A stretch of DNA of 64,000 nucleotides from Mesotaenium endlicherianum. Its lineage: Eukaryota. Numbering within the stretch: the stretch's first letter is position 1; each line of letters begins with the position of its first letter. Position numbers and translations under genes: made by a program. The notes below the pieces were generated by a model. The model searched no databases, was not told the origin of the DNA, and saw only the letters and a program-made list of their open reading frames with translations. The stretch covers positions 666,233 to 730,232 of the forward strand of contig WELA01003305.1 in the NCBI GenBank assembly GCA_009602735.1, read 5' to 3'. Shown here piece by piece: positions 6,544 to 44,285 of the stretch.

Positions 6544-8700
6544 TTAATTTCGCCAGTAAGAATTATACGTCTTAATGGTGCCTGGTGCGAGTGCTTGGAG
6601 TGCTATGTCTAACCGAAGCTTCTCGAGTTGTTTCCAATACTCTTGCAAACGTCGTCTGGAGCTATCTGCACACCCGCTTTCCCTGGTTGATGTTTAGTGC
6701 TAGCATTGTGCACGCGGGTAAGCCTTTCGTTCCAAATGTCCGCCAATCCTGTCCTTTATCTAACACTTGATTGCTAAAGCCTAAGATACGAACCTCATCA
6801 ATAAAACTAGCCCAAGTAGTGGCATCCTCGAGCAGCATTGGCCACCAGACGGCTGCGGGCCAGCAGGGTAATACTATAGTGCATTCGGCCTGGCATCTAA
6901 GCGCGTGTTTGATAGTTGGCGGGATGAGTTGCGGGGGTGGGAAACAGTAGTTATTATCAGCTCCCCAATGGAGCGTGAATGCGTTGGTAGCTATAGCTTC
7001 CCGACAGAGGAAGCGCGAGTTAAATCGCGGTAGCTTGCAGTTTTTGGGGCTGGCAAATCTGTCCACCGAGAAGGGTCCCCATAGCTTGTTGAGCATGCAG
7101 AACGTGTCCTCCTTCAAGCCATAGTCGTCTTTATCCGTGAACTTAGATAGTTCGTCGGCTATCGTGTTCGAGTCCCGAGGGACCCACTCAACAAAGAGTG
7201 TGAAGCCATTTGCTAAGGCTGTGTCAAAGATCGCTCTGCATAGGGAGCTTATTGCGAGGCGAGTCAACCCTCCTTTTTGAAATACGAAGTATGCCGCCTG
7301 GCTATCTGTCCAAATGAGTGTTTGAGCATTTTTTTTATAATTCCTGCTGAACTTGCTAGGGCTGCGCTCATGCCCGCTAGCTCGCAAACTGTCGACGAGT
7401 CACCTAGCACTGCTGCTTCAAGTGTTCCTCTCATTCTCCATGATTGACCTGGTTCTATTCTTTGCAGGTCTGCTCCCCAACCCAAGTCGCTTGTATCTGT
7501 ATACAATATAAACTCGGGTGCCATTTGAAATGTAAGCGGGGCTGAATTGAAACGCTCAAAGTTGTTCTTCCAGAATTGTAGTTCGTGAAGTACATCTGGG
7601 CAGACGGGGATCGAGTTTGACCAATAATGCCCGTCAAGTATGTTAGCGTAGAGCTGTCTTGTATACATACCCGCTAACCCTCCGAAGACTATCTTCATGG
7701 AAATAATTTGTCCCGCCACCGATGCTAGGTGTCTGACTGGAACTTGTTTTCGCCGACTTGCTTTCTGTTCAATCTGCGGGCGATGTAGTTTTGTCTTGCG
7801 TTTAGCATCAATGTGTATCGTTGGCGTTCTAGAGTCAATCACTACATCTAGAAACCGTAGGACCTTGGACGGATCCAGTTTTGCTTTTTGCATGTTGACC
7901 ACAAAACCCGAGTTGCGAAAATCGTCTAGTACCGCATGGAGGTGTTCGTAGCGTAAACTGGTTATGGCGCAGGCGCCTAGAAAGTCGTCGAGGTACCGCA
8001 AGATCTTAATGCCTTTTGTGCGCCATCGACCTACGAGCTGCTTAATCACCTTTGTGAAAATGAACGGGGCAGATGCAAGCCCAAATGGGAGATTAGTAAA
8101 TGAATAAGTTTTGCCGTCTAGTTGGAAATCCAAGTATGGATAATAATCTGGATGCATGGGTATGTGGTGATACCTCGACTTTAAGTCGATCAAAAAGAGG
8201 TAATCTCCTTGGGCTACTATCTCTGGTAGCAGCGTAGTACCTTCGTACTTAAATCGTTGTTTCTTCAAGTACTTGTTCACGTGTCTAAGATCTAGAATGA
8301 GTCTCAATTCATTGCCTTCAGCGATGTTGAGTGGACTGATAACTACTGGTGGAGTCAATCCAGTCCAAGCATTGGCCGCTCCAGTTTCTACTAACTCCGC
8401 TACTGCCTCGCGTGCAAAATCTAGATGCTTATTGCATCCTTGGTGGTTCTTTTTTGCATATGGAGGAGGGGGGCTGTCTTGCCATTCCAGGCGATAGCCG
8501 TTTTTTATTGTTGGAATGACTGTAGTGCATGTGCACCATGATTGCCACCATTGGAGGTTGGTAGTAAGTCGTCCCGCGACGTGCGTTTCTTGGTACGCAA
8601 CTGCCGTTGTCTCGTCGGATTCTTGTGTTTTCTCAACGCTTTTGCCAAGTAAGGCTTGCAGTTGGATGTCTGCTTGCAAATCTATGCACATCCACCCACG
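6544..8700 (-). mobile_element. DIRS-type (tyrosine recombinase) retrotransposon fragment: RT, RNase H, DAM-like methyltransferase domain, N-terminal stub of recombinase
   Basis: RT motifs [34 protein letters not shown] and YLDD (7984-7995). RNase [33 protein letters not shown]-like VDRFAS..RFNSRF..NYCFPP..LPCWPAAVWWPML (ORF 6662-7387). Then LAPGTIKTYNSYWRN* (6544-6660). Frameshift at the T8 run 7329-7336. Confidence 0.85.
6662..7387 (-). pseudogene. DIRS RNase H C-terminus plus N6-adenine methyltransferase-like domain
   Basis: WTDSQ, WVPRDSNTIADELSK, WGPFSVDRFAS, NNYCFPPPQLI, IVLPCWPAAVWWPML; out of frame with the upstream RT/RNase H. Confidence 0.8.
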
Positions 8701-10524
8701 ATTTAGCTTCCTTGACTCGTAGGCGATGGGCTGCAGTCCCTTGCCTTGGTCTTGAAGGAGGATTGCTCCTATTGCATAGGAAGATGCATCGGTGATGACG
8801 TGGAAGGGCCAATCTGGGTTTGGACTTGGGAGTGTGAGCACCGGGGATGTGGTCAATCTTCGCTTTAACTCTTGAAATGCCTCTTCCTCTTTCTCGGTCC
8901 ATGTATATAGCCTGTCCTTCTTGAGTAGATCTGTCAGGGGGGCTGCTATGTGCGAGAAGCCTTGGATGAATTTTCTGTACCAATTGGCAAATCCCAAGAA
9001 TGACTGGAGTTCTTTCTTGGTCGTGGGGGTTGGCCATTCCTCCACCACCGTGGTCTTCTTGGGGTCTATCTTGATGCCATCAGCAGTCACGTGGAGACCT
9101 AGGAACTCCACTTCTTGTTTGGCAAACTCGCATTTTGACTCCTTCGCAAACATCTTGTTTTGCTTCAACAGTTCAAGGACTTCTTTCAAGTGTCTCGCAT
9201 GCTCTTCAAGGGTCTTGCTGTAGATAAGGATGTCATCGATGAATACCACCACAAATCTGTCCAACATGGGCTGAAATATGGTGTTCATCATAGTCATGAA
9301 AGTTGCTGGGGCGTTGGTGAGTCCAAATGGCAGGACCATGAACTCAAAATGTCCATATCTTGTCCTGAATGCCGTCTTCTCTATGTCCGGTTCTGCGATG
9401 CGAATCTGGTGGTAGCCGCTCCGTAAGTCAATCTTCGTGAAGTACTTGGCTCCAACCAGCCGGTCCATGAGCTCATCCATGCGCGGCAGCGGGTATCGAT
9501 TCTTGATGGTGATCTTGTTGAGGGCGCGATAGTCCACACACATCCTCAAGGTACCATCTTTCTTCTTGACAAATAGCACCGGGGCTCCAAATGGCGACTT
9601 GCTAGGTCGAATGAAGCCATGCTCCAGTAGCTCCTTGATTTGCTTCTTGACTTCGTCTAGCTCCGTGTATGACATTTTGAACGTAGGCCGAGAGATGGGC
9701 TTGCTTCCGGGCTCCAACTCTATCTTGTGGTCTACGAATCTTTTGGGGGGTAGGCCCTTGGGCAATTCCGGGGAGAACACTTCTTTGTAGTCCTCAAAGA
9801 CTTCTTGTATCTCCTTGGGAACGGGGCTGCCTTCTTGACTCTCGATGTCTTTCTTGATGTCTTTTGGCGTGATCAAGGCCAAAAGAAGCTCGTGTCCCTT
9901 CCTCACAAGTCTCTTGAGTTGGAGGGCGGACAATAGTATCTCGTGTGCCGGCTTCTGGATGTCTTGGGTCTGGATATTCTGGATTGCGCGCAAAATACAG
10001 ATTCTTGAAGTGATGTCATTCTTGATCTTGATAGTACCGGTCCTCCAATCAACTTGGGGGTTGTGCTTGGTCAACCAAGGCGTCCCTAGGATGACGTCGT
10101 ACTTGCCCAATTGCATGGGGGAGAACACTACTCTATCCTTGAAGGACTTGATAGAGAGTGCCAAGGGGTACGTCTTCTTGGAAGGGGTAGTATAGGAGAA
10201 TCCATCGGGCATCATAATCTCCTCGTCGTGGTCAAGAGTTCGCATAGTAATACCGTGCTTGGTGGCAAAATCTGCAGCAATGAAGTTGCCTTGAGCTCCG
10301 CTATCCACCAAGATGTGGACCTTCTCTCCTCCAAGGTAACCTCTCAAACTCATTGGGGCTGGAACGTCGTCTTCAACGGGGGTCTCCACCTCACTTGGCG
10401 TGTTGCCTTCTCGTGAAGTGGGTCTTGGGGTGGTAGGCTCCTGGCCTACCGGCGCTGTCCGTTTTTTGACAACTTTTTGGGGCATGAAAGTGCACGATGG
10501 CCCTTTTCCTTGCAATAGAAGCAT
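7264..10524 (-). CDS. Chimeric pol ORF: Ty3/gypsy protease-RT-partial RNase H fused in frame to DIRS RT-RNase H
   Basis: 1086-aa ORF. Gypsy part: [75 protein letters not shown]. After ~8700 it switches to a second, DIRS-type RT with YLDD. No integrase. Confidence 0.85.
10432..10467 (-). promoter_or_regulatory. Putative programmed -1 ribosomal frameshift signal (gag-pol)
   Basis: Slippery heptamer A AAA AAC (10467-10461) in the gag frame, with pol in the -1 frame. 10 nt downstream is a perfect 7-bp stem GGTAGGC-cagga-GCCTACC (10450-10432) containing the gag stop. Confidence 0.75.
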
Positions 10525-11726
10525 AGTCCAGCCGTCATGAGAGCTTCTTTTTCAGCCGGGGAGAGTCTTGCTTTCACTCCTTGCTGGTTTCTTGCATCAT
10601 AAGTGTCATTGGAGGGTCTTCCACTCTTCCGGGCAGCCGCGGGGTCCCTTTTAATAACTCCGATTTCCATGGGTGTGGGTCCAGATTCGGATGTGGAAGG
10701 GGCTGCGTACACCCGCGTCGTCGGTACCCGTGAAGATGAAGGCACGGAGTGCTTGAAATCCAAGGTATCCACCTTTTGGGCCACTTCAATGATCTTTGAG
10801 AAGTCCGTCAAGTCGCGTAACTCCACTTCCTTTGCCACCTTGGGTTTGAGGCCAAAGATGTAACGGTCAATCTTCTCCTCGAGAGACATGTTGGGGATCT
10901 CAAGAGTGAGGGCGTGAAATCTGGATGTATACTCTTGAACGGACGTCGTTTGCTTGAGATGGTGGAGCTTTCCTCGGGCAATCTTCTCCGCATTGATGGG
11001 CATGAATTGCTTCTTGAGGGCCTCACGAAAATCTGCCCATCTTGCATATGATGGTGGGGGCTCTTGGCCGAGCATGGGGTGCGCCATAGCTTGATATATA
11101 GCCGCTTGATAGTTACGCCACCATGATGTTGCTGCTCCTCTAAGTAAGGTAACGGCAAAGGGAACGTAGTCCTCCTCGGGTACTTCAAGGAACGCGAGGT
11201 ACGTCTCCACTTGGTAGAGCCATAAATTCAGGTTGGCACCTTTCCCGGGGTTGAAAGTGTCGGGTTTGCCGGGCTTGATGAGTTTCCTTGCTCTCGTTGG
11301 CTCTTGTGGAGGCGCTTGAGCCGGGGCTGGATTTTGAGCATTGCTCGCAATAGGGGCAACCATGGCAGCCATAGCTTCTCTTGACGCTTGCACGGTTGCT
11401 TCATAGGTGGCCAAGCCCACTTGGTTGTGGACGGTCATTAGGAAGGCTGCCCACTCATTTGCGGGAACTCCTTGTGGTGGGGTCAACTTTGCTATAGCGG
11501 CTGCCACGGGATTTGACGGTGCTCCTCCTTGTGGTGCTTCTTGTTGTTGCAGATTTCCTTGAGTAGGCTCTCCCATCGACGCTGGAGGAGGGTGTGCTCC
11601 TCCTTGTGGTGCTTCTTGTTGTTGCAGATTTTCTTGAGTGGGCTCTCCCATCGGCGCTGGAGGAGGGTGTCTTGGAGAGGAAGGGCTTCCTTCGAAAGCT
11701 TGCTGTTGGTCTTGAGGATCGGCCAT
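10446..11726 (-). CDS. gag: Retrotransposon Gag with CCHC zinc knuckle
   Basis: [64 protein letters not shown]; 426 aa without interruption. Confidence 0.93.
11521..11670 (-). repeat. 75-bp tandem duplication in the gag N-terminus (HPPPA[P/S]MGEPTQ[E/G][12 protein letters not shown] x2)
   Basis: Two near-identical units 11521-11595 and 11596-11670. Confidence 0.92.
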
Positions 11727-11750
11727 CTTCTTGTGCTACCAAAGTGCCTA

Positions 11751-11763: not shown

Positions 11764-12203
11764 TGTAGTGAAACAGATAGATAAAGTACTTAGTAAAACA
11801 GAATACTTTATCTATTCAAGACAAGGATCTTTGAACACAAGTGGTAGCTTCTTGAAAGAGAGATGGCTTCTTGAAAGTTAATATATTTCTGGATTTTGGC
11901 AAGTACAAGAGTGATTCTGGAATGTCTTTCTATGTTCTAGCTCTTGTTTATATACTTGCTACATAAGTAATTTCTAGGAAGGTGTATGTTGATGTGTTGG
12001 CACCCAACACATCCCAAAACTTGCCACCTCTTTCTAGAATAATGTACACATGTCCTTTTGACCTAAAAATGGCACATCTGACTTTTGCCACATGGAGTTC
12101 TTCTAGGTCTTTCCTCTAACTTCGAAAATGCCTTGGAATGTTCAAAGGACATGAACCAAGTTACTAGAGTACCTATTCACACTTGACACCACACCATACT
12201 ACA
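11764..12203 (-). repeat. 5' LTR of the Ty3/gypsy element (440 bp)
   Basis: Bounded by TGTAGT...ACTACA inverted termini and directly adjacent to the PBS; TATA-like tract near 11949. Confidence 0.8.
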
Positions 12204-12250
12204 AATATATTTGAAAACATTAAAATATATGCAAACTAATGTATAATAAC

Positions 12251-14801
12251 TCAAATCACTACATCTACAAAGTGCTCCAGGAGGCGGTGGCACTCTCGAC
12301 CGATGAAGCTTGGCTTCGCTGCCCGATTTCTCTTCTCGCCTTTGATGAGGGCCTTCACCGCCTCCTTAGGTATCTTCGCCTTCACTTTATCTTTAAGAAT
12401 CTTGTAGAACTCATCTTCCTTCTTTTGTCCTGGTGATAGGAATGCATGGAGAGTTCTCTCGTACAAGGTTGCAGAGATCCGCAAGTTTAAATGCAAAATG
12501 CAAACAACGCAGTCATTGGGCGGGATGTTAAATAGAGGGGGCTTCTTGTGCCTCTGTCCTTGGTGCTGCAGCTGGTAGTCTATCCTCGCCTTCGTGCTCT
12601 CCTTTTCTGGCTTACCCCGTGTCGTCTTCATGATATCATTGTCCATGTGTGACTTGTGCTCAAAGTGCTTTGAGCAGTGGGGACAGGTCATGGGCAATTT
12701 GTCCATGTCAGGAGCATGTGCTGCAGCCTTCGTCCCCTCCAAGGTGCGGGAGACGCTCGCACCGCGCTGACACCTGTTGTGGATGTCCTTCGACGTCACG
12801 AGGCACCACAAACACGGGTACGTTGAGCTTGCCCCTGTCAGCCCGTACAAGCTATTACTGAATTTGTAGTCCCCACCTTGATACACTTTTACTCTAAATA
12901 GCCCACCCCCCACATGCAAGCCTGCCTGATTGACCTCCTCCAAGTCTTTGAGCAGCCTTGAAGACACAGCTTGTATGCTGTTGTAGTCGTTTTCGCCTTC
13001 AAAACACACGATTGTACAAGTTTCCTTGCTGAGTTTGTCATGCCCAAGCTATCTTTTGTAATGACTTTCACAGCGATGGTGGTCTGGTTCACTCCTCTAT
13101 GTAGGACAGCCGCATCTCCAATAACCTGTACCCTCAACTCGGCCTGGACGAAGCTCTAACTGTAGAATCCGTTGTCTCAGAACCTCATGCAATGACACGG
13201 TTACACTGAGTCCATCTGCACTCTCCTGGGGCTGAGATCTGCATATATTTTAGCTGCCAGCTTCTCTACCTTCCTCCTAGAAGCAATCTTGGGGAGACGA
13301 ATACTTGTGCCTTGTAAACACCTGGGCTCCCACAACCCTGTCTGTTGTGAGTAGGTCTTAGACAACATGTTCACAAGCATCTGATATTGCTCTTGGGAAA
13401 GTTTCAATCTGTACTTTATGGCCAATCTCAGCTTGTCATCCCACTGCTCTTGAATCTGCTTGACAGTGGCCTCCTCTACGCGCTCCTTTAAGTGCAATTC
13501 AGCCATGATTGCTTCTAGCATGTCCTTGTTGTCTGAAATGAATCGACTTACCAAATAGGCGATTAACAATTAATAAAGATCTTTATATCAGCAAGTAATT
13601 TTTATGGTATTTCCGTTGACTGGTTTAACGGCAAAGGACAACACGCTAGCAGAGAATAATACTCGTCAGTCAAATGAGAGTAAACTAGCATCAATAATGC
13701 AAATCAGTAAACTCATACATAAGCAAGGTTAGAAGACAGTGCGTATCATTGGCTTCTCGCCTTGGATTCAGATCTCTCTCAGTAAGCTGTACAAGAGAGT
13801 TGGTCTCGTTTCCGAATGCCGAACTCGAGAGCAATGCCTAGCATATGTACATGGAATGAGTTTACTGTTCAACGGTCAGTGCGATGGCACCGCCTACCCG
13901 GGAGTTAACCACGTTGGTAGGACCTCGGTTAACCAAATCCACCGCCATCTCCCATCATCCCGAATCGCCATCCATCATAGGGATGTCATCTGGCCATTCA
14001 TCTAGCATACCACACTTAGATGCATATCGAGGCAGTTCGCTGCTACCGAGTACGGAAGTCAGCTGGCTGTCAAAGAATGTGTCAGCAAGCTGACTTAAGG
14101 TGACCTCAGCCTGCTACTTCCGGCCAAGTCATTAAACTGATATTAAGTTTAAAGTCCAGCAGACTGATTGTTAACTAGAGTTTAGCAGGCTGAACTTATT
14201 TAACTATATTATTTAAATGAATATTATATCGACCAGTATACTGATTCATTACATTGTCAGGCTTGTTCAAGAAGGCGGTCAAGGACTTGGTCATGTTTGT
14301 CTCTAATACAAACTTGTCTCCCACGAAGTGCTTTAAGTCATTGCTCATTCTCTGCCACGTCTTTGCAGATTCTCCACCGACTCTACGCCTCTTTGCTGCA
14401 GAAGATACAGGTGCTGCTGTCAACACTTTCTGCTTCAGTTACCTGATCTCCCTCTTAGCAGCGCTTAGCTCATTCTTGATACCCACAAACTGGTGTGCAA
14501 TTTGCACTTCTCTATCTGCTGCTTTTCTTTTCAAGCTTCTATTCTCATTTGCAAACTTCAACATATCTGATTTATATCTCTCCACTTTGTTGTGTTTCCT
14601 TGTAGAAGTATGTATATGTGTACTGGCAGTAGTACTTGTTGTAGACGTCACCTTCTTCACAAATCTGCCACCTGCACCTCTAGGCATATCTGTGTTGCTT
14701 TGGGGTGTTGCCATGGTCATTCTATTGGGTTGATTCTTATGCTTTTTGGGTCTAGGCATTGGTGCAGGCTCATCCTGGGAGGGCTGTTCTACAAGTTCCA
14801 T
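12251..14801 (-). pseudogene. RAG1-core/Transib(-Chapaev)-like DDE transposase, decayed and 3'-truncated
   Basis: Colinear fragments: basic N-terminus (14801-14254, internal stop at 14439), LAIKYRLKLSQEQYQML, SVTVSLHEVLRQRI, LRVQVIGDAA (D at 13114-13116), NSAR..CFEGENDY, GGDYKF (D at 12869-12871), GLTGASSTYPCLWC, PPLFNIPPNDCVVCILHLNLRI, FIGRECHRLL. About three frameshifts between 13240 and 13010. Confidence 0.78.
13534..14253. mobile_element. Solo LTR (720 bp) inserted in the transposase
   Basis: TG...CA termini with 10/11-nt inverted repeat (TGAAATGAATC / GATTCATTACA) and perfect 5-bp target duplication TTGTC (13529-13533, 14254-14258). Removal restores the frame FLNKP-DNKDMLEAI. Confidence 0.88.
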
Positions 14802-14879
14802 CTTGAAAAAGACCTTCTGTATGAAAGTGTACAGAGTATAGGCGGATGGTAGGTAGGTAGGTGGTAAAAAATGGGCTTA

Positions 14880-16188
14880 GAAGATTTTTTTGGTAATTTT
14901 GTCTTTTTTTGTTTTTTAAATTATAAAAATTATTTTTTGTATTTTTTTATAAAATTATGTGAACATATAGACTTCATCTTTACCTACATACCAAAAATAT
15001 GGCACAGAATGAAATGCACATGAGAGTCTGTATACTGAAATGTCAAATTGTTTTACGCGTACATTCTATTAAACTTCAGAAAACCACTAAGGTCTCAAAA
15101 CACTTTCAAATTTCAAACTTAAGACTGTTATGCAATCCTCTTACATAGGAGAACAGTGATGCAAAGTTATAGGATGACACAATGCCAGGTTGCTAACTTA
15201 TGCCACTCAACACATGCTTCAAAAAATGTCAGCTTTCAAGAAGTACCCGACTTATCGCCTACTTTTGCATGAGCAACTCAGGGGCTCTATCTTGGGCTTT
15301 GGTGCTTAGAATGAGCTGTAACTTTCCCATTGAGACTATGGGGGGTTTCAGAATCTAGTAGAACCATTTTCAGATCCGTACTCCAAGTGTTTTTGCATTG
15401 ACGGACTGGCATGCTTCACGTGTGCGAGAAACTCCACATGTCACATTTTGGAGGCTCACAGCCTGGTGTAACTTGATGCAAACTGAATTTTTTTTGGATT
15501 CATGGTTATCCAGTTGGGTCCTTAATGCCTCCTAAAATTTTGGGGGGATTCAAGAAAGTGGAGTACAAGTTATGGCCATCTGTGTGAAGTGAAAGAATAG
15601 TGCAACATGTAATATTTTTCCAAATATCACAAACTTTTGCAGATTTTAGTTTGTGTGCATATCTTGGGTCTCACTAAATGGAATGACCCAAAACTTCACC
15701 AATAGCTCTATAGGGGCATGACAAATCCAAAAAACAATTTGCAGATCCATACTACAAGCATACCGCATTTTACGGACGGCCACTCTTCACATGTGTGAAA
15801 AGCGCCACATGGCAAACTTTGGAGGCCCATAACTTAAAGTGATTCCATAAAAATTAAAATATTTTTTATTTCATGGCTACCTAAGAGGGTCTTTAGTAAA
15901 ATATGGGGTCCATTAGGAACTTTTTGAACAACTGATGGTCATTTGTATGAAGCAGCAAGAATGAGAGAGTGACAATTTCCACTTTTGTCGACATATTCTT
16001 CAATTTCACTAAAAGTGTAATAACTTATGGAGAATATGCCAGCTGTGTCTGAAACTTTAGGGAGGTTTATATATGGGGGTTATCTACTAGTATCCCAATT
16101 TTCAGACTATTTCGACAAAACCGCCGCAAATGGCGCTAAAAAGTACCTAAGTGTCCAAAAAATGGGCATTTGGGCTGCATGTGGAGTG
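14880..16188 (-). mobile_element. Probable non-coding subterminal arm of the DNA transposon, with ~371-bp imperfect direct repeat
   Basis: AT-rich, no ORFs. Repeated blocks cagatccgtactccaag (15371) / cagatccatactacaag (15742) and cttcacgtgtg..ccacatg..tttggaggc (~15415 / ~15786). Candidate CAC terminus at 16188. Confidence 0.5.
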
Positions 16189-18422
16189 CAACTCTCACAA
16201 GCACACATTCTACTACTTTAGTTCTCATTTTCGCATTCTCAAGGATTGTCAAATTATTTAAAGATATTGTTATTTTTTTCCATTAAGTATTAAATGTTCC
16301 TTGAATATTGAACAAGATCCTCGAGAAAGCAAAAATATTACATGATAAATAAGTCGATTCATATCACTCCACGCGACGTGTTGCACGCGTCGTAACCAAC
16401 CACGTGGCAGGTCGCTACACTCCTCCCACATACAATTGTGCTTGTCAATTGGGCACTTTTGCCGCGGCAATGCGAGGGACATTGCTTCGAGATAATGTCC
16501 TTTCTTCATAAAATCCAAATATCACCATACGGTCGCACCATCGACCTGCCTCTCACCCTGAGCATCTGGTGCTCACTGGGGTTTAACCTTGGTCTTCTGG
16601 GCACGGTTGCGTACATACCATTGTAATGATTCAAACAAAAAGGCAACTTGAGATACTTTAATTGTGCGCCAATTGTACTTAAACAATGTAGACCAACACT
16701 TTTGGTCACATATGGTCGCTCAGCGTGATGTGTCGCACGCGCCGTAATCGTCCACGTGGCGGTTCGCTACATTGTGGTGCAATCGAGCTCATGCAGCAGC
16801 TCTCCAAGAAATTTGCCGTCGTGGTGAATCCATTGAGACGATTCTTTGTGTGGCAACCAGTGGGCCAATTTCGTCTTGGCAGTCCACATGATAACTTTCT
16901 AGGTGTCACACATGTCGTGGCCATTCTAGCTTGACTGCCGGTGGACCAAGTCCAGCGTTGCCGTCCACGTTGCCCATTCCAAGGTCGCATATTTGCCTTC
17001 ATACACGTTATCAACCCCGTGTCTGATTCCAAGCCATTTGAAGTTCAAGTCAACCTTAGGGCCAATTTACGGTGGCCATAGAAATGGCCCGCAGTTCGAC
17101 TTTGTGGTCGTAGTTGTACTCGCAAGAATTTGCAAGTATACTGGCCCTTGCATGATGGATGAACTCCAAACTGCGAGCGTTTACACAGTGGTATTTCCCA
17201 CTTTTCATATTCGAACACTGCGGATTATGAAGTCCAACTACAACCAACTTCTCAAACGAGAGGTAGGTCATTTAAGTTATCGAGAGAATGGTGGGATATG
17301 CAAAACAACAAGAAAAGAGCCCAAATACTGACAATTTTGGATCTGACATCCGCTGTATGTGTATAAGAACGTAGTGCCACTTGGAACAACAATAAAAGTT
17401 TTCTGGTCACTACAACTGCAATTCAAATATCGCCATTACAATTGCAAATTGTCGAGTTCTTCTACGAGTTGTAAAGTCGAAGTGCAAGATTACATTTTTA
17501 ACTACACTTTAGAAAAAAAAAACGCAACTGCGAGGACGCTTGGGGCCAACTTAATGCGAGTGGCCCATGGGGTGCTAACTGTCGCATTGATCCCAATAAT
17601 TTCGATCGCTTTTGCCAAAATTGCAAGTCGATTAGCCGAAATGCGTGTCTCATTGGAATTTTGCGCTATGTTCAATGCTTATGCAAGATACCGCAGACGA
17701 TTATTTTCTTTGCGCAGTGGCACTTGACGAAGGTGCCAAAAAATGCACTTCATTAATATCTTGTGCAATCTATGTGGCTGGCTATGTCGCAAGGATGCCT
17801 ATTAAAATGATTATTTCTCGTAGTGTAGTTAGACATTTTGATTGTCACCAAAAATTGTCAAGATTATATTTATTCGCACAAGAGCAAGAATATATAAAAA
17901 AAAATCGCCAACCAAAAATCCTCAACCAAGAAGTCCCTACAGATGAAAAGAGTTAGCAATTCATGGAGTGGCCACTGTAAACTGGCCCTTATTAGGTTGA
18001 CCTTGCTCGTACTTCTTGGGTCAAACTGGACTCCACTCCGTACTTTGGCTAGCCGCAACTCCCGCTGCGCTTCTTACCGACACTAACCTTCAACACCCTG
18101 TATCGAATCTATTCGGGCTATTCACTTCCGCAGGTTGCGCAAAGACAAACAAATAAAACTGGGTGTAGAGAGGTCCATAAAGAGGTGGAAAGTTATATTT
18201 GTACCTGCTTAATTGATACGTCAGCTCTCGACCGGCCCTTGTAAAGTGAATCTTCCGAGCCGGACCAGGATAGTCGGGATATATACTATATACTATAATG
18301 ACCACAATTCATTCAAATTGCCCAGATGGTGCCAAGACTACGTAAGCATCTGGCACATCAAGTCTCATCTCTCCTAAGCTTTGCAAGACGACGCCTTCGC
18401 GCAAGCTTGCGTGCCGGACGAG

Positions 18423-18545
18423 CACTTGAACTATGCTTGAACTGGCTTGAACTCGCTTGAACCAACTTGAACCGTGAGTCGTGACTCTTGAGTCGTGACA
18501 ACGAGATTTCCAAGCTTGTAAATGATGACTCGTGACTCGCGAGGA
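18423..18545. repeat. Short repeat array (CTTGAAC x5, then GAGTCGTGAC/GACTCGTGACTC units) upstream of the SFH gene
   Basis: Directly visible. Confidence 0.7.
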
Positions 18546-32497: not shown

Positions 32498-33316
32498 GAC
32501 GCCTCCCCTATATTATCTTTGATGTATCGTCTGCATCTGGAGGTGTCTACAAGGATTCTCTTTGGAGATATAAATTTCTTAGGCAGTCAACTTTGATGCG
32601 CAAGTGTCTCTAGTGACCCGAATAAGTTTCACTTGCATCATCTAAAAACTCTGATGCACAATTGCTTCTGCGATAATCTAAGCACTGGAGTTCGTCACGA
32701 TGAAGGAAAGTTTATGAATGACTGACGAATTAACATGCACCTGTGCGCAGTACGGAAGCGTACCAAGTTGACTCGTTGCTGAAAATGAAAAGTCGTGTTG
32801 TGTTGGGGATTCTAAATTGTGCAGCTCCTACGAACGCCGCTCGTAAGGCCCGTCGGATGGCAGGAGCGAACGTGCACTTGAGCGTCGACTGCAGTCGACG
32901 GCCTGGTGTCGACAGCTGCAGAGGTTCGACTGAGTCCCTGTGGGTCGGCACCTGGTGGGTTGCACCTGGTGGGTTGCACCCAGTTTTGGCCCAGAGCAGA
33001 GCAATGTTGTGACAAAGCTGGCACTGAAGCAGCGACACTCGCACTTGAGCGCACATTTACATCTTTGGCTAGCTCGTCTTCATGATCGGAGTAATGAGAG
33101 TGTATGAGAGTACGTATAAGAGTTCTGTAATTGTTGTCAGGCTGGCAGCAATTGTTGTCATATGAGCACAACAAAGCTCCTTTAGATGACTTGGGCTCCT
33201 TGCGTGCTGTGCCGCTCTGAGAAGAACTAGGAGAGGAACATCTGACAGCTTTGGTGATCGAAGCTGGATACGTTCTGCCTCAGTAATTTACAATATATCG
33301 CTTGACCCCGCGTGAG

Positions 33317-34501
33317 ATGGCACTCACATGCCACTTGATTAAGCCGTCTTGTATCCTGAAGCTGCATCCCCGTACTCTTTCGTCTCTTCCCCGCCTAGAG
33401 TGTACTAGCCCATCATTGAGATTGGAGCAAAGCTTCAATTTATCCAATCTTTTTCATGCTAGACCGAAAGATCGACATTGGAATGCAAAGCACGCTCTGT
33501 CTTCATCCAAAAGGGTGCCTCTTGGCATAGGACATGCCGTTTCAAAAAAACTCATATCACAGAAGCCGCATTCACTCAGCGTAAGACCTCAGAGTGACCA
33601 AAGTAGGGTGACATATAGATGCTTCGATGAAGGGAAGGTAGCAAATCACGTCACAGACTTCCAACCTGATGCCATAATGGTCCTAGCAGGGGGGCAGACT
33701 GAAGATGGAGGAGTGCCAGGTACATTATGCTCCCTGATAGCAGGCCACTGCTAGAAAGGCATATGATACTTTGGACCTCTTGATAGTTGGAAGGGGAGCT
33801 TGTGTGGAAGACAATGCGTAGGAACTGAAACGACTCATCGTCCAGCAGTCGAGGCAAGTCACAGAAGAAGTTTCTAGAGCATAAAGTGTTGCCTGGGGCA
33901 TATGGAACAGTCTTCACTGTGCCAGTTGTCTGACGGTGGGTGATCCCCACTGCCAGTGTGGGTGCAGAAGCGGCTTGACGTGGCCCTCTCGCTGCATCGC
34001 AAGTATGGCTGCCCCATCGTCTGCTTAGGTGGGGGCACACCCCACAGGCCCCCTGTGATTGGGCCAGCTGGCCATGTCATCCATGAAGGCACCTCATGTG
34101 CTGACTACCTTCTTTCCAAGGTGAGGCAACTTCATACCTTATCATATTGTTAAATACTGACATGACGACATATGGGCTCTACTTTCTTCCGTTGCCCCCC
34201 TATCTGGTGGGAATCTCTTGCCCTTTTGACTTGACTCACAAAGAATAGCAAGTCAAAGGTCAAAGGTCCAGGTTGCTTTACCAAAGAAGAGCTTCGAGCA
34301 TTTAACATAAGGATGTTCTCACGGGGAGTTTTTGTACCGGGGGTGTGTCTCCTCCTTCAGGCCATTCACTGTGCAATTCTTGTGGGGGCATTAGCATGAG
34401 ATCCATGTACATACATGCTTATGTGCATATTTCAACATGTTTTGATTATGTTCTGTGTCTTTGTAGTGTGTGCAGCACTGAGAGAAAACCTTATGCATCT
34501 G

Positions 34502-34537
<36 letters not shown>

Positions 34538-36616
34538 CTATATGCATACTTGTTAATATATCAACTTGTAGGCCAATATTTTGCTCGTCTAAGGTACATG
34601 TACTTTGTATGTGGGCATGTCCTGGAGTAGTGGACATACCTTTACTTTCTGGAACTGTGGGCACAGCTGACATAAAGCCCTGTATTGAATCAAGACAAAG
34701 AGTGCAGCTCCATGGTTCCCGTACCACCCACTACCATGAAGCCACATAAAAAGAGCAAAGAGTGGGAAAAGGCCCTGGTGATTGATATTGGAAGTTCCAG
34801 TATCATTCTTAAGCATGTTAGACTGCTAAGAATGTTCCGAGGCACAATTAACATCACATGCACGGCGTAAGCAGATTGCAGCTGACTATAACATCATCAC
34901 GTATCTGCACGTCACATATCCATTCACTTATTGCTTCCATCACAATGATCAATATTCTTATGCGGGTGACTGATATCCACCTACATCCTAATTGGATTTA
35001 TCTCTATGCAAGTATAATTCCTCAGAGCCAAATAGCAAAATAATGCCGTGGTCTCACCCTATCATCCCCTCACTGTGCGTGCCCCCGCTCATTTTGAGCT
35101 CCACATTCTTAAAACGAGCTCCACCTCTGTCGTCGACCCTCGTGATTAGCTGCGCCCATGAGTGTCGTTTGATGCACACATGTGTGGCATTACTGATCTG
35201 GCAGGGCATGGCCGCGCCGAGCATCCTGAAGGAGTGGGGCTCCTACGACACCATCGGCAACGGATACTTTGCGCTTGTGTGGCACTCCCTCCCGCGCCAG
35301 TGGAGGGCGCTAGCTGTCATCACGTCGGAGTTCCACATGCCCAGGTCCAGAATGATCTTTGACTGGATCTTCGGCTTGCAGGGCGCTGACCTGAGGCCCA
35401 GGGATGTGGGGGACTACAGCAGCAGGCAAGTCGTGACTGGTGGCAGTGCAGGTGTCGGTGCAGGGGGCGTCGCCAGAGGCCAGAGAGACAGTTTGGCCAC
35501 CGTGCCAGGTGGCAGCAGCTGCCTGAATGCAAGTAGTAGCATCAGCGCAAGTAATGGCACCAACCTTGGCAATGGCCACGTCAGCAGCCTTCTTGCGGAG
35601 GGTGGGCACAGCCAGGGGGTACTAGGAGTGGCAGAGGAGGAGGAGATGGAGGTGGGATTGCGAGTTCACGATATTGTGAAGGGGGGGGCTTCTAGAGAGC
35701 GCAGGGGTGAAGTTCCCAGTGAGCTGAATGAGCTGAATGCGCTGAATGGGCTGGGAGAGCAAGATGAAGACGGGTGGGTGCTGGAGAGCCTGCCTCGCGA
35801 CAGGTGTCCTGCACGCCAGGGGTACCGGATTGTGTACTACAGCGTATCAGACGATGGCATTGACCCCGCCCTCATTCAGGTGCCGCCACGTGGCACCTCT
35901 CGCTCACTCCTTTGCAGTCTTCTTAAATACCCATATGCCCTTAGGTATATGGCTACTGGAGCCTCCCGCTTGAATTTGAAGTTTTTTTGCCTGTCGAGAG
36001 CACACCAGTGTGGGCAAGAGTCATGAGACATGTACATGCATTGGAAGGCTTCTCTTCTGAAGGGCGGGTGTTGAAATTATATGAAAAAAGTGTTAAATTT
36101 ACAAGGAGAATTCTCGAGGGTGAGAACTCACTAGTGCCCAAGATAGCAAGTTGATTCTTTTGTATGTATCGGAAAGACCTTCACCCTCTGACTTCATGGA
36201 AAATGCTTTGAATTTAATATTGTCATTCGATGACGACTATTTGTGCTTTGAATATCTGCAATTGTGTCCTTGTTAGCGTTGGTGACGAGACGAGGGAACA
36301 AAGACATGGAGTAGTGCTTTGTGGTAATGACATCTCTATATGTCTGTGCACTTGTTAAGATTAATAAATGCACGCTGTCGTGTGTGTGTGCGTGTGGTTG
36401 TGCACGCGCCACGTGCTTGTGTGCTTGCAGGCACGTATTCTTAAGGAGCAACAAAGTATGGAGAATTTGAGGCGGCTCATCGTGAGATTACATAGCTTGC
36501 CTGACTTCCACATTTGGTTTCACACGGAGCACAAGGCCTACAATGTGGCTGACCAACATAAATTCGGCGTGAGCAATATGAAAGAGGTCAAGGATCCGAC
36601 TTTGCTTTGTTACTAG
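33317..36616 (+). CDS. DUF218 (YdcF/SanA/ElyC-like) domain protein with probable organellar transit peptide
   Basis: Exons 33317-33719, 33957-34120, 35205-35879, 36431-36616. Motifs DAIMVLAGG, RLDVA, LGGGTPH, SYDTIGNGYF, VITSEFHMPRSRMIFDWIF, RILKEQQS..WFHTEHKAY. Ser/Arg/Lys-rich N-terminal ~100 aa. Confidence 0.85.
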
Positions 36617-37817: not shown

Positions 37818-40800
37818 ATGGGTATAGTAAGTTCTGTAAGTAGATGGGCTTTTAGACGCTCTGACGGAGACTTTGAGAAGAAGCTACAGTACCTTTCGAA
37901 GGAGGAGGTTGCAGTTCATTCCCGCTTAAAGAGGAGGCTTGCATCATGGCGCAAGCTGGCCCGTATCATTGTGATCAATTCCACAATACTAGAGGTGAGA
38001 TGGAAGTCAATCATCGATATTAGGCAGAAGTTATGGTATAGTGCTAGCTGCTTAAAATCCTCGAATTTACGAACGGGAACTAGCTATAAGTGGTACCTTC
38101 AGGCTGTGCTGTTATCACTGGTCTAACTGGATAAAAGCAACGGACTGATATCCTCCTCAGTCCACTTCAATCCTCGTGGAGGTGTTGGTGGCAATGAAAA
38201 ATAAGTATTGGAAAGGACGAGTATGTGCAGTAAAAACAAAGACCCCATTGTACATAAATTTTATTTTCTGAGGGTGGAAATGGCATTCTGAGGCTGAGCC
38301 CGAGGGAGGTTCAGGGCTCAGCCTTCAGAGACTTTATATGCCGTTTGGTTTAGGTTGTCAAGCATTCATTGAGATTGCCATGTTGGCACGACATTGTTGC
38401 CTAGAGGCAAATTCAAAAGAGAAGCCCTACTCTTTCATCCTACATTATACAACAGTTTGCCATCCTTGGGTTGTCATCGAACGGTCATTGAAGCTGATGT
38501 GAATGAGGGTCTGCTTACCTGGTCCTTATGTCAACACATGGAGTCACTAAGTTGATTACTACACTCAAGACCCAGGCTTTATACACCGGGCAAATCGTTG
38601 TCGACAATTATATGTTTGTAGTGCGTATGGGAAATATGGAGCAAGCATTAGCATCAGTACTCCTGTTCAAGAATATAAAGTGGGTGAGAACTTTTTGCTC
38701 AACATGACAAATGAAGATTAGTGTTCTTAGGAACCTATGGTGAAGGGGATTTTATTAGGTTGCAGCCTCCAGCGTCAACAAAAAAACGTAGCATTCTGCG
38801 TCCCCCCTGTACAAGTTGGAAAACACAGTCATTTTGGTTGTTATTTGGGTGTGTGATCGAAATGGGGCGAAGTGACTCATAGCCTGTGACTACTGCTTCT
38901 AGTGAGAACGTGATGAATCTAACAGGCCCTGAGTAGAAAATTGATTGCTGAGTAACTAAGAGTGGGCTGTGACATTAGATAGAAGCACATGTCATACATG
39001 CAGCCATTGTGTTTTTTGCACAAATTGTGTGGCTATGGTTTCTTTTATGTGATGATTTTGGATTATCTCTCCTGTTGCTCCATTCAGGCGATTTGTTATA
39101 TGCATGAACGTCGGGCACCTTTGAAATATTATGTGGGATATGCAGCATAATCATATGCCTTACACAAACTCTTGTTCCTTTTCCAGAATGAACTTAATAT
39201 CAAAAGTTTGACAGAAGTGTTGGGTCCAGTAGATCTTCTCGACCATGGGGTACAAAGGATACTGATATAACTTCTAGATAGATCTGGACACATACTTTGT
39301 AAATTGCCGCATGCTTCACGTCATCAAGCAAGTTTTCTGTACTGGTCGTTTAGAACTTTGAAGAAGCTGGTTGTGTAGAAAAGTCCTCAGCATAGAGTAG
39401 GACCATACTGCCACGATGTTGTCATGCAGCGTGTTCTGCATTCTCTTCCTCTACCCTGTGGCCAAAAACTGGTCAACTCAGACCCACTAAACAGCAACAT
39501 GACGCTTCTTCTTGTTGCTGTTCATCCTTGTTCTGCTCTTGCCAGGTGGTGCTTCTCAGCTTTGCCCTGGTGGCGACAAGGTCTACTGACCTCGAATGGC
39601 AGGAGCGGTGTATACGGGTGTCCCCTGTCTTCCTCTTCCCCTTCGTAGCCATTTTGGTCTATTCTTGCTGCGCACGCTTCACCAAGATGAGTGAGTTTTC
39701 TCATCACTTGCAGACATGTCAGGAGGCTTCTGGCTTTAAGACAAGTTCTTGCGATGTCAGTGAAAACACCTCATGTGCTGCTATGGTCAAGCTTTTTGAG
39801 GAGATTATTCTATTGGGAATGGGATAAGGGGGCATGCATTGGGCCGAGAGATAAAATGCATGTTGCCATATAGTTCACGAATTCACAGCAACAAGAGGAG
39901 GACGTTTGGTGTGGTCTTGTCTGTGAGGTGTAAACTTACATGTGTAAGTTTGTCTACATCAATGTGTGAGGGTAGCAGGTTGTGTGTCCTAGCGACTATA
40001 CATCGGAGCAGAGAGTAGGAGCAGAGAAAAGTGTAGTTTTTGCATGGCACAGACGCTTACACCATCCTTCATTCTCAGACCTCCACTTGGTGATGCTCCA
40101 CATTTAATGCACCTCCTGGCACATATTTGGAGAGCTAACAACGGATCCAACTCGATGCATAGCAATGCATGCCACATCCTCTTTTTGTTTGACCAACAGA
40201 TATCCGTCTCCAGCCTCAGCCTTGCTGTACAAGCCTTGGTCTCTGCGTGCAACTCGTGGTTTCTTCCACCATGTTCCACAGCCCGTCTCACACTTAAGCA
40301 GTAGCTTGCTGCTGTCCACCTGGCAGGAGACCGGCACGACAGGCAGGCCCTGGAGAAGCTGAAGGCGCAGCGGCAGGCCAAGATTGAGGAGCTCAAGGAG
40401 AAGACCAACTACTACAGGAACATGCAGCTCATTCAGGAGTGTGCTTTGCGTGCCCTACACAAACTTCCTCCCCCACCTCTCTCTCCCCCTCCCCCTCCCC
40501 CTCCCCCTCCTCCTCCTCCTACTNNNNNNNNNNNNNNNNNNNNNNNNNNNNNNNNNNNNNNNNNNNNNNNNNNNNNNNNNNNNNNNNNNNNNNNNNNNNN
40601 NNNNNNNNNNNNNNNNNNNNNNNNNNNNNNNNNNNNNNNNNNNNNNNNNNNNNNNNNNNNNNNNNNNNNNNNNNNNNNNNNNNNNNNNNNNNNNNNNNNN
40701 NNNNNNNNNNNNNNNNNNNNNNNNNNNNNNNNNNNNNNNNNNNNNNNNNNNNNNNNNNNNNNNNNNNNNNNNNNNNNNNNNNNNNNNNNNNNNNNNNNNN

Positions 40801-41082
40801 NNNNNNNNNNNNNNNNNNNNNNNNNNNNNNNNNNNNNNNNNNNNNNNNNNNNNNNNNNNNNNNNNNNNNNNNNNNNNNNNNNNNNNNNNNNNNNNNNNNN
40901 NNNNNNNNNNNNNNNNNNNNNNNNNNNNNNNNNNNNNNNNNNNNNNNNNNNNNNNNNNNNNNNNNNNNNNNNNNNNNNNNNNNNNNNNNNNNNNNNNNNN
41001 NNNNNNNNNNNNNNNNNNNNNNNNNNNNNNNNNNNNNNNNNNNNNNNNNNNNNNNNNNNNNNNNNNNNNNNNNNNNNNNNNN

Positions 41083-41146
<64 letters not shown>

Positions 41147-44100
41147 TGGGTGTGTTTGTATAACGTAGGTGCATTTTTCTGTGTATTGTGGGCCTGCTTG
41201 TGTGTCCGTCTCGTGAATTCTGGATCCTGGTGAATGTGTGTGTAGCTTGCATGTGTAGCTTGCATGTGTCATGTGGTGGATGAGAGCAAGCCAAAGCCCT
41301 CCCGGGCATCTCGTGGTGCAGGTCATCATGAGCCAAGTCACAGCATGTCACAGCACATTATAGAAGAACTTCAGCAGGGGCTGCTGTTTGTGAACATAGT
41401 TGTGAGAACTGCGCGTCCATGCCACCGTCATCAGACTTGTGGCAAGCCTTGCTTTAATCAGCCATCTCCAGATGGCCGCCACCTCGAGCAGGCCTCCTCA
41501 TGCTCTTGCAACAACCAGTTGTATCATCTTGTATCCAGAATCTATGTCGACCCAAGAGTGCGTGTGACTCTACATTAGTGCATTTGGCTTCCTCCTTTTT
41601 ACTTTCTGGGCAGCAAAGTTTATGTGTCCTATTTCTATCCTTGGGTCAAAAGTTTTTTGTGTGCAAAATGACTACCAGCTTGGTCTTCCCGGTCACCTTA
41701 CTTGTGGAGCTTTGGTTGGAAAGCTCGTGTGGGGTTGAGGCGAGGGGGGGAACGTTGGGGGGATGAATGATGTTTCTGTTTCTCCGCTGCGACGCGGGTG
41801 TTGCGCTTGCGTCTTCCTCATTGATCACTCTCGTCATCAACATATTGCTTTTGATTTTTCAGCTCCTTCGTTCTCATTGAACTTGGGGACGCTACTGCAA
41901 GCAAGGCAGTGGTCTGGTACTGATACTTCTCTTTCACACTTTCTTTTGAATTGGCCTTTAAACATCGCTTCACAAATGTGCACCCTCATTCACGCACACA
42001 CACACACACACACATGGAAGAGAGACAGTCTGCAGAGCTTCCATGTGACGGGGACGTTTCGCGGGTGTGGGCGTGCAGAAGTACGACCCCGACCCGGCAG
42101 TGAAGGCAGCAGCCGCCAGCATCCTGGTGTCCAAGATGCACATCGAGTCCGGCCTCAAGCCCCCTTCCCTTCAGGCTGCATCGCAACCTCGCTCCGGTGG
42201 CGTCGACGGCAGCAGCAGTGAGGCCTCTCTGAGCGATGCAAACGGCCAACCCCTGGGTGTGAGTGGGGAGGACTACGGGCGGCAGAGGGGGGGGGGCGCG
42301 GACTCGCAGAGCCTGAGGAAACGAAAGGGTGCAGGGACCTTGCAGGGGAGCGGAGAGACAGGTGGCAGCAGCGGCGGCAGCAAGCAGGCGCTGCTAGGCT
42401 CGGGCGGCAGCGCACCTCACGCGCTGCGCAGTTACCAGGGCTCTTCTGGGCCAGGTGAGAACAGGCCCCCAGGGCCTGGGGCTTCTCGGGCTTCCAAGCT
42501 GGGCCTGGGGTTTGGTGGAGGAGGAGGAGCAGGAGGGGGGACAATAGGCTCCTCAGGGACATCGGGGATCTTGCAGGAGGAAGAGGAGGAAGAGGAGGAA
42601 GGGGAGGAAGGGGAGGAAGGGGGGGAGGGTGGGCGTGGCATGCCGAGGAGAAACAGTGGGGGGTCGGGCCCGGGGCTCCAGAGCTGGAAGGGGGCGGACG
42701 GGGGGGGTTGGGTGGGGAGGATTGCTGCGATGCTGGTGGGGGAGGACCCCACCCAGTGCTACGCGCTCATATGCAAGCGGTGCCACAACCACAACGGTCA
42801 GTCTCCTCCTCCTCCTCCTCCTCCTTCCAGCCCTTGGCCCCTCCTGCTCTGCTTCAGCTGTGCTTCTGGGCTTTGGTTATTGACGTCTTCTTCAAGTCTG
42901 CTGCTTCAAGTCTTAAAGGAAGGAAGCGAGCATTGCAAGGCAGCCGGCAGGCATTGAAGGCAGCCCGCAGGCTCTGCAAGGCTTACCTGTCCCTCCAGTG
43001 CGCTGGATGGGACCCAGATCCAGGGGCCTTGTCAAGACAGGGGGGTGAGAGGGCATTGGAGTGAGGGCAAGGGAGGTGGGCACTCAGAAGGCCACTGTGC
43101 ATCACCATCGCCAGTTTGCCCCAAAGAGTCTGCCTCGAGCCTGCTGTAGGCATACGTGTGCAATGCCTGGTAGCATTTATGCAAACGTGCGTGCACGCCG
43201 CTCCCGGGGTACCCCTGGCGCTTGCTGCTTGGGCTTTACTTCTAGGTTGGCTAGGGGGGGCACAGCTGCTGCATGTGTGCAACCTGGCACAGGTATGATT
43301 TTTTGCAAAAGTGCCTCTGGTTTTGTTGAAGAACGTCGATTTCCTGTTATATACTCCTCCTTGCACCTTCATAAGTCATGTGGGCGTCTTCATTTCTACC
43401 TTTCACGGAGTCAACCCGGATTCCAAGGGGTACTCAGTGTGGGTGGGAGGGAGAGAGGAAGAGAGGAAGTACACATGCAGAAAGTGGCTGTCTTGTCTGA
43501 CCGTCTCAGAATGTGTGGATTGTCTTCGCATAAGCGGCCAACTTGTCTGTATTACCATTCTAGTGTCTGCTTGTGGGAATAGTTATCACTGTTGCAATGG
43601 CTTTCCAATGTCAGCAACTTACTTCTCCTTCAGCCGCGTGTCATATTCCACTTTTTGACGCTGATGTGAACTCACGAGACCCTTAAAGTGCAGGCATGTC
43701 CGACTACAGCCCGAAAACACAGTTGGCAATTAACCGCTGTACAACCACATCATTACACTCGTGCAATGAGTTGCCGCACTTACAACTTGGTTCCCGATCA
43801 AAACCCCATCGCTTCTACTGCGCACCTCTTACATTCCCTCGCCTCTTCCGCTCACTCCTGTTTTATTCTTCTCGGTTCCTGCAGGCCTGGCCACAAAAGA
43901 GGACTTCCCTTACGTTACCTACTACTGCCCCAGATGCATGCACCTGAACCAGGGGGAGCATGCATCCAGAGCTGCCATGCAGGCGCCCTCTGCACCCCCC
44001 TCTCCAGCTCCCTCCCCTTTGCTCAGCTCGTTGAAACAACCTGAGGCCAATTTACCTCGTGGAGGGCAATTCCGGCCGGGTCCAATGGCTGCTGCTCCTG

Positions 44101-44285
44101 TGCCCGCCCTCTCTCTCCAAGGTGACATGAAGGGTGAAAGCGAGGGTAACGGTGGGGGGGGGACGACAAGCGTTGACGCTCCGGCTGATGACTTGAAAAC
44201 GGTCGAAGAGAATCTGCGAGAGGAGTTGGCTGTCAAATTGCTAGGTGTGAACACGACTGGGTCAGAAGAACAACGAATTTCATAG
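37818..44285 (+). CDS. LNP: Lunapark ER three-way-junction protein (2 TM, coiled coil, C4 zinc finger)
   Basis: Exons 37818-37994, 39546-39690, 40327-40436, 42079-42796, 43885-44285. Motifs DFEKKLQYLSKEE, KIEELKEKTNYY..QLIQKYDPDP, LVGEDPTQCYALICKRCHNHNGLA..YYCPRCMHLN. The third intron spans an N-gap and has a non-canonical donor. Confidence 0.9.

Follow-up and report, generated by a model that had tools for sequence, protein, structure and literature searches.

A decayed transposon with a RAG1-type transposase core in Mesotaenium endlicherianum, and its relatives in green algae

The stretch of DNA analysed here, called the window, comprises 64,000 nucleotides of Mesotaenium endlicherianum contig WELA01003305.1 (positions 666,233 to 730,232 of assembly GCA_009602735.1). 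It holds the remains of a transposase gene on the minus strand, in six pieces, together with one end of the element and two LTR insertions (Table 1). In the flanking sequence, Pfam matches are confined to a lunapark-like gene (Zn_ribbon_10; exons at 40300-44300, plus strand) and a DUF218 gene (exons at 33300-36000, plus strand).

Table 1. Features of the transposon relic and of the insertions in it (positions in the window)
Feature	Position	Strand	Remarks
Left terminus CACATGCAGCC	16173..16183	-	18 contigs of run X1 diverge behind 16183
5' non-coding arm	14802..16172	-	164-bp internal direct repeat, 15362-15524 / 15733-15895, 69%
Transposase piece 1	14442..14801	-	ATG; low-complexity and coiled-coil N-terminus, without Chapa or RING cysteines
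Premature stop TAA	14439..14441	-	not in sister copies (other letter at 14439)
Transposase piece 2	14254..14438	-	profile positions 28-83; weak alone, E 0.03
Solo LTR, 720 bp, TG..CA	13534..14253	-	5-bp duplication GACAA at 14254-14258 and 13529-13533
Transposase piece 3	13228..13528	-	LAIKYRLKLSQEQY block; E 1e-25 to profile A1
Transposase piece 4	13135..13227	-	flanked by two frameshifts; alone E 0.63
Transposase piece 5	13022..13134	-	first catalytic Asp, GDA, codon 13114-13116; E 6e-8
Transposase piece 6	12264..13021	-	E 5e-76 to profile
Clade-specific insert H-x10-CxxC-x36-H	12563..12718	-	likely extra zinc finger
Gypsy 5' LTR truncating the transposase	11764..12263	-	primer-binding site TGGTATCGGAGC next to LTR
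Gypsy gag and pol (protease, RT, RNase H start), cut off	8701..11735	-	Pfam
Second RT and Dam-like methylase	6665..8700	-	in-frame fusion to gypsy pol

When the minus strand is read from 14801 to 12264, with the solo LTR removed and N (X in the translation) placed at three breaks, 605 codons result, with one stop (codon 121) and three X. A first, sequence-only reading of this DNA had counted five pieces, one stop and about three frameshifts; the stop is there and the frameshifts are exactly three, but the pieces are six. That reading had placed the relic at 12251..14801. Bases 12264-14801 are transposase, while the 13 bases at 12251-12263 belong to the gypsy LTR, into which the frame continues; nor is this interval the whole element, which reaches 16183. 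The read-through scores 419 bits against a profile of 47 relatives from which the window was excluded (the top score among 200 shuffles, 193 of them scored, was 4.1 bits), and it is 29.5% identical over 579 aa (E 6e-62) to P0005, an intact protein of Pterosperma. In a piece-by-piece search all pieces fall in order along the profile. Through the model of a relative, piece 3 has its structural counterpart at the start of the RAG1 core, about residue 460. The first catalytic Asp of the window aligns to D325 of P0005 and is kept in all three groups of relatives described below (A, B and C). Piece 6 carries the second Asp (12869-12871), S-x3-CxxC (12803-12814), CILH (His at 12491-12493) and FIGREC, and is ended by the gypsy LTR ahead of the H(3-4)H and Glu motifs, which were lost through that insertion. 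The earlier statement that the catalytic Glu region is lost beyond the gypsy element stands, and neither a transposase C-terminus nor the second ORF of the relatives (below) occurs in the six frames of the window.

The Pfam scan of the six pieces gave no match over the cut-off, DUF1280 included, and the main piece matched in the PDB (phmmer) a single C2H2 entry at E 3.4. Atlas matches for the main piece all lay below 0.9 and serve as leads only. Word-index searches confirmed 0/1237 and 0/370 candidates, and with profile A1 1/7993, which was the query itself. The searches of viral contigs (0/29, 0/12, 0/12 and 0/6 candidate stretches) and of prokaryote genomes (0/69 candidates) confirmed none, and the viral fold library held no match at E<=1e-3. 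In two RNA runs, of which 6% and 13% were read, depth is 0-0.23 at 12436-13371 and 0 at 14308-14775; both LTRs are covered.

The solo LTR had been recognised from the sequence as splitting the ORF, and it does so between pieces 2 and 3, bounded by a perfect duplication; it is high-copy. The gypsy element is incomplete, with no second (3') LTR and no integrase within the window. One frame of 1095 codons (7264-10551, minus strand) joins its pol to the second RT at about 8700, and a Dam-like methylase ORF (6665-7399, minus strand) comes after that RT, a layout that we take to be DIRS-like. Two 75-bp tandem copies (96%) lie at the start of the gypsy gag, at 11519-11668. Searched through the window, the 3' part of the transposon was not found past the second RT and methylase region, and the search for its right end or for a continuation of the empty site gave chance-level matches only.

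Sister copies assembled from sequencing run X1 show what the window copy has suffered. In them the solo LTR is absent (13528 is joined to 14254), extra bases are present behind 13021, 13134 and 13227, and there is no stop; they continue 710 nt past the gypsy junction (12264). Sister contigs differ from the window at 7/442 and 16/435 bases, and X1, which may be the very source of the window, matches the unique flank 16190-18500 with zero differences. The small differences among the assembled copies suggest a burst that may have been recent. Their depth is 885-986 compared with 69 for the unique flank, a ratio of about 13-14 that is a rough guide to the number of copies, since depth is not copy number.

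The left end was located from the same run. Eighteen X1 contigs depart from the window behind 16183, with dissimilar flanks (agreement 0.39), and contigs of X5 and X7 likewise depart at 16183-16184. As contigs with unlike flanks diverge at this point, the element begins at 16183, where it reads CACATGCA; GACACTT, about 28 nt further in, forms a second conserved block. This dead copy of a multi-copy element with a CAC terminus is likely a cut-and-paste DNA transposon. The sequence at 16184-16222, which hosts the element, is repeated to a very high copy number (in X1 the summed depth reaches 87,949) and is present uninterrupted in nine contigs. Compared with the body, the terminal 240 bp (15946-16183) are covered more deeply and by more divergent contigs, and X20 has RNA reads there, a pattern that suggests non-autonomous derivatives. 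Upstream, another repeated element contains a 56-bp direct repeat (16364-16419 / 16716-16771, 79%).

With the main piece as query, phmmer found 322 relatives at E<=1e-3, and the best 150 were sorted into three groups: A, whose members have the insert, B and C, all three gathered with the window as query. Sixteen clusters of group A were looked up; ten were unnamed and the six that name an organism are all green algae, namely Mesostigma viride, Pterosperma (a complete transcript), Cymbomonas (three) and Tetraselmis striata. In group B, two of ten clusters name an organism, Nematostella (XP_048581436) and Haliotis (XP_046573163). Group B (P0104, P0141 and others) comprises widespread animal and metagenomic RAG1-like transposases annotated as uncharacterised, without a Pfam family in the members scanned. 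The top match, P0001, is a fragment repeated five-fold and was left out, and P0080 and P0096 were taken out of the Chapaev-like alignment. Both Asp, the Glu, CxxC and both His are conserved in group A; of these the window keeps the two Asp and CxxC. The insert lies between CxxC and (C/D)xLH. It had been read as an extra CPHC..H..H finger after the CxxC, and such a segment does exist throughout the clade, with the difference that the conserved ligands are the H, CxxC and H of Table 1, invariant in 10/10 and present in at least 90% of the 47 group A members. This finger was not found in groups B and C.

In a tree from which the insert columns were removed (381 columns, 32 rows), the window with group A (95/92), group B (100/99) and group C (99/95) are all separate, and a quick tree of 41 rows agrees on the groups. 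The rows of both were picked from the best 150 of the 322 relatives and from cluster members. The 32-row tree has no root and was computed under LG+G4 without mixture; 45% of its columns are filled in the window piece, and long branches meet inside A. Its rows are the window and members of groups A, B and C, with no RAG1, RAG1L, Transib, EnSpm or Lanisha sequence among them, so that the case for a separate lineage is built on motifs, on spacing and on profile scores.

The relation to RAG1 is apparent at the level of profile and of fold. Against solved structures, profile A1 finds the ProtoRAG RAG1L at E 8e-13 and RAG1 at E 1e-11 to 1e-8, and aligns NS..FEG..Y, GGD..CxxC, PL..(C/D)xLH, FIGREC and E onto the RAG1/RAG1L motifs; it also aligns the H..H and Glu motifs, both missing from the window. 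The fold was modelled not for the window protein but for P0005, a relative 30% identical to it (pLDDT 81, pTM 0.70). With this model Foldseek finds RAG1 at E 4e-16 and HzTransib at E 6e-10, and VIA gives Z 24.5 for RAG1 (rmsd 3.9, 451 aligned), 21.7 for RAG1L, 21.3 for HzTransib (6pqx), 11.7 for P element and 7.8 for Hermes, a ranking that cannot separate CMCT members, as the PDB matches include no Chapaev or EnSpm transposase. The match spans RAG1 460-1007. These results bear out what had been proposed by eye, a relic of a RAG1-type transposase with the RAG1 motif blocks in order, and the structural comparison with RAG1 and HzTransib proposed at that time finds both. What finds no support is a reading of the motifs as specific to Transib/RAG: all CMCT lineages share the DDE, C(2)C and H(3-4)H motifs (Kojima, 2025; PMC12730594), and HzTransib is not among the best 60 of the 69 profile A1 matches (E<=10).

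A metagenome scan, in which five of 86 candidate stretches were confirmed (L001-L005), provided element ends. L001, L002 and L003 have a left end in common (CACATGGCAC, CACAATGCACC and CACATCGCACC), and in L002 a matching right end at 5317 gives an element of 4069 bp with an 11-nt imperfect TIR pair (5/5000 shuffles). The relatives' ends read CACAATG/CACATCG. CACA..GCA is found in 5/5 ends (that of the window and four of relatives) and a second block at an offset of 27-28 nt in 4/4 left ends, both small samples; the ends thus combine a heptamer-like CAC with a second block at a distance. Elements of the CMCT clade have CA..TG termini (PMC12730594) and a TSD of 2-5 bp. The window's left end is CACATG, its right end is missing, and L002 has 5'-CA..TG-3' at both ends. 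In the flanks of L002 no duplication of 2-9 bp was seen; the two flanks may stem from different copies. The same short repeat, CCGTATGGAC, lies in flanks of L002 (5318-5578) and L003 (1-87), as if these elements inserted into one repeat family. An ORF of about 415 aa (L002 2-1246, minus strand) starts 3 nt outside the left end of L002; it has methyltransferase-like motifs by eye and no Pfam match.

A second ORF, convergent with the transposase, is also present in four of the five loci (L001-L004), its identity to the L002 version being 27-45%. The differences fall mostly at third codon positions in 6/6 pairs, and by this codon pattern the ORF is coding. No RAG2-like Kelch ORF, for which the first reading had proposed a search, was found beside the transposase of four relatives: the second ORFs of L001-L004 have no Pfam family and no Kelch signal, and in the window copy the region is missing. 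The second ORF was not found in L005 or, in six frames, in the window, and as L001-L004 form one Cymbomonas-like subgroup, an arrangement with two genes may not extend to the window's family. The model of the second ORF is alpha/beta but of low confidence (pLDDT 57), with no Foldseek match at E<=1e-3, a best Z of 5.8 on a long helix and an Atlas match of 0.76. The predicted complex of the L002 transposase and second ORF scored 0.00; alignments were not used, and it is counted neither way.

Taken as a whole, the window almost certainly contains a decayed CMCT-group transposon with a RAG1-type core. We further consider it probable, with some reserve, that the transposon belongs to an uncatalogued green-algal lineage of the CMCT group, whose intact transposase is predicted to combine the RAG1 catalytic core with an inserted zinc finger. 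By analogy with RAG1 and HzTransib (accessible text of PMC10629977), a transposase dimer would bind the short bipartite ends, the D-D-E triad in its RNase H fold would nick beside CAC, hairpin formation on the flank would release the element, and strand transfer would join it to a new target with a short TSD. The insert, situated in the zinc-binding domain, would bind zinc and add a DNA or protein contact, and the second ORF may assist transposition. Afterwards the window copy accumulated the stop, its three frameshifts and the two LTR insertions, and its 3' part was lost along with the downstream half of the gypsy element.

The most serious alternative, which we consider possible although not likely, is that the element belongs to the Transib/RAG1L superfamily itself as a divergent member near Subgroup I of Tao et al., would transpose by the same nick-and-hairpin mechanism and would have TSDs of 5 bp. 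RAG1 and RAG1L are the sole significant transposases among the best 60 of the 69 profile matches, and the Chapaev-like profile (only nine sequences) finds no RAG1 at E<=10. The bipartite look of the ends fits as well, as does the start of L002, CACAATG, which is the Transib heptamer in the accessible text of 10.64898/2026.08.26.747230, where TSD and TIR vary within Transib. S-x3-CxxC occurs in zebrafish RAG1, and the D2-E spacing, 285-288, comes near the 253 of RAG1 once about 40 residues are subtracted for the insert. However, the profile misses HzTransib as described above, Pfam RAG1 reaches at most 18 bits (cut-off 25) in 3/47 members, identity to RAG1 is 14-15%, and the Glu motif is LEHLH, not NESGNK. 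Moreover, a much closer relation is seen to the animal group B (hhalign E 1e-54), which itself finds RAG1 (E 4e-11). A bolder extension of the green-algal reading, which we regard as rather doubtful, would make groups A and B together an undescribed superfamily-level branch nearer to RAG1/RAG1L than Chapaev is; the convergent non-Kelch gene inside the algal TIRs would then be a partner of the transposase, so that a RAG2-like helper would have been recruited independently, in the layout known from RAG.

A Chapaev lineage that has shed its N-terminal Chapa/RING domain is improbable. DUF1280 is the Chapaev transposase (accessible text of PMC3985635) and is carried by group C, one member of which also has RAG1_imp_bd and a weak RING match. 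Groups A and C are related (hhalign E 4e-28), FIGREC comes nearer in its letters to SFIGNHC of the Chapaev-like proteins, which resembles SFIGREC, both share E-x-x-H, and 5/47 group A members have sub-threshold DUF1280 matches. The highest of these among the 47 members is 23.2 against a cut-off of 25, though, group C has its own branch, and the read-through scores 87 bits on C as against 146 on B and 419 on A. D2-E spacing in group C is 332-346, and the Chapa finger, present in its member P0148, is absent from P0005 and from the window's N-terminus.

It is likewise improbable that Repbase already lists the family among those of the green lineage, for example as the moss superfamily Lanisha. 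This is a CMCT lineage sharing C(2)C and H(3-4)H (PMC12730594; PMC8245031, whose accessible text names Lanisha without giving its features), but Kojima describes it as EnSpm-like, and Transposase_21 is not among 25 of the 27 group A Pfam families listed. No moss protein occurs among the named relatives in the 30 clusters looked up. Elements of the CACTA/EnSpm type end in CACTA/G, and this assignment was rejected on the CACAT end and the same Pfam families, its sole pointer being an Atlas lead of 0.87. Best matches to CACTA/EnSpm or to a non-transposase, the outcome that the sequence-only reading had named as contrary to it, did not appear.

The suggestion that a green-lineage family might be undescribed holds in part. 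The accessible text of the literature consulted, including PMC4411706, 10.1101/2021.09.26.461848 and PMC12973397, with Repbase Reports and most subscription journals outside its scope, gives no account of the algal clade. Kapitonov and Jurka (2005) report no Transib in the plants sequenced then (accessible text of PMC1131882). Tao et al. (2022; PMC9435367) describe RAGL from a pelagophyte, Aureococcus, and count 39 Transib-like plant proteins; the accessible part of their supplement names six angiosperms and has no match to the green-algal names looked for. The window copy is dead, and RAG1-like elements beyond animals are not new in principle. The origin of RAG1 has been inferred from few lineages, nearly all of them animal, and the predicted intact RAG1-fold transposases of Mesostigma, prasinophytes and Tetraselmis offer new outgroups for its tree. 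The complete Pterosperma transcript and the near-identical sister copies in the window's species make the enzymes assayable for nick-hairpin cleavage. How such a transposase comes to have a partner gene is a question that the insert and the convergent second gene would put to the test.

Among known systems, Lanisha, ESTA, Plavaka and EnSpm share C(2)C, H(3-4)H and CA..TG ends with the element (PMC12730594). EnSpm/CACTA and Plavaka differ from it in that the window ends in CACAT, not CACTA, and that neither Transposase_21 nor Plavaka is among the 25 of 27 Pfam families listed. Chapaev has a homologous core and the SFIG.eC and E-x-x-H motifs, but group A lacks Chapa/RING, has DUF1280 below the cut-off only, forms its own branch and has a shorter D2-E spacing. 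Transib (HzTransib; Subgroups I and II) resembles the green-algal lineage in fold, in the CACAATG-like end of L002 and in being without an N-terminal accessory domain; it differs from group A, which has the zinc-finger insert, two genes in some members and a D2-E spacing of 285 and 288 (P0005 and P0007) in place of the canonical 206-214 aa (accessible text of PMC1131882). Group B, without the insert and on its own branch, is the nearest outside group by profile and also finds RAG1. Unlike RAG1 and RAG1L, group A has the inserted H-CxxC-H finger and a coiled-coil N-terminus without Chapa/RING, and the second gene of the relatives, unlike that of RAGL, is non-Kelch; with the RAG1 core and ProtoRAG RAG1L the lineage shares the predicted fold, D-D-E, CxxC, (D/C)xxH and HxxxH in order, CAC termini and, in four relatives, a second gene.
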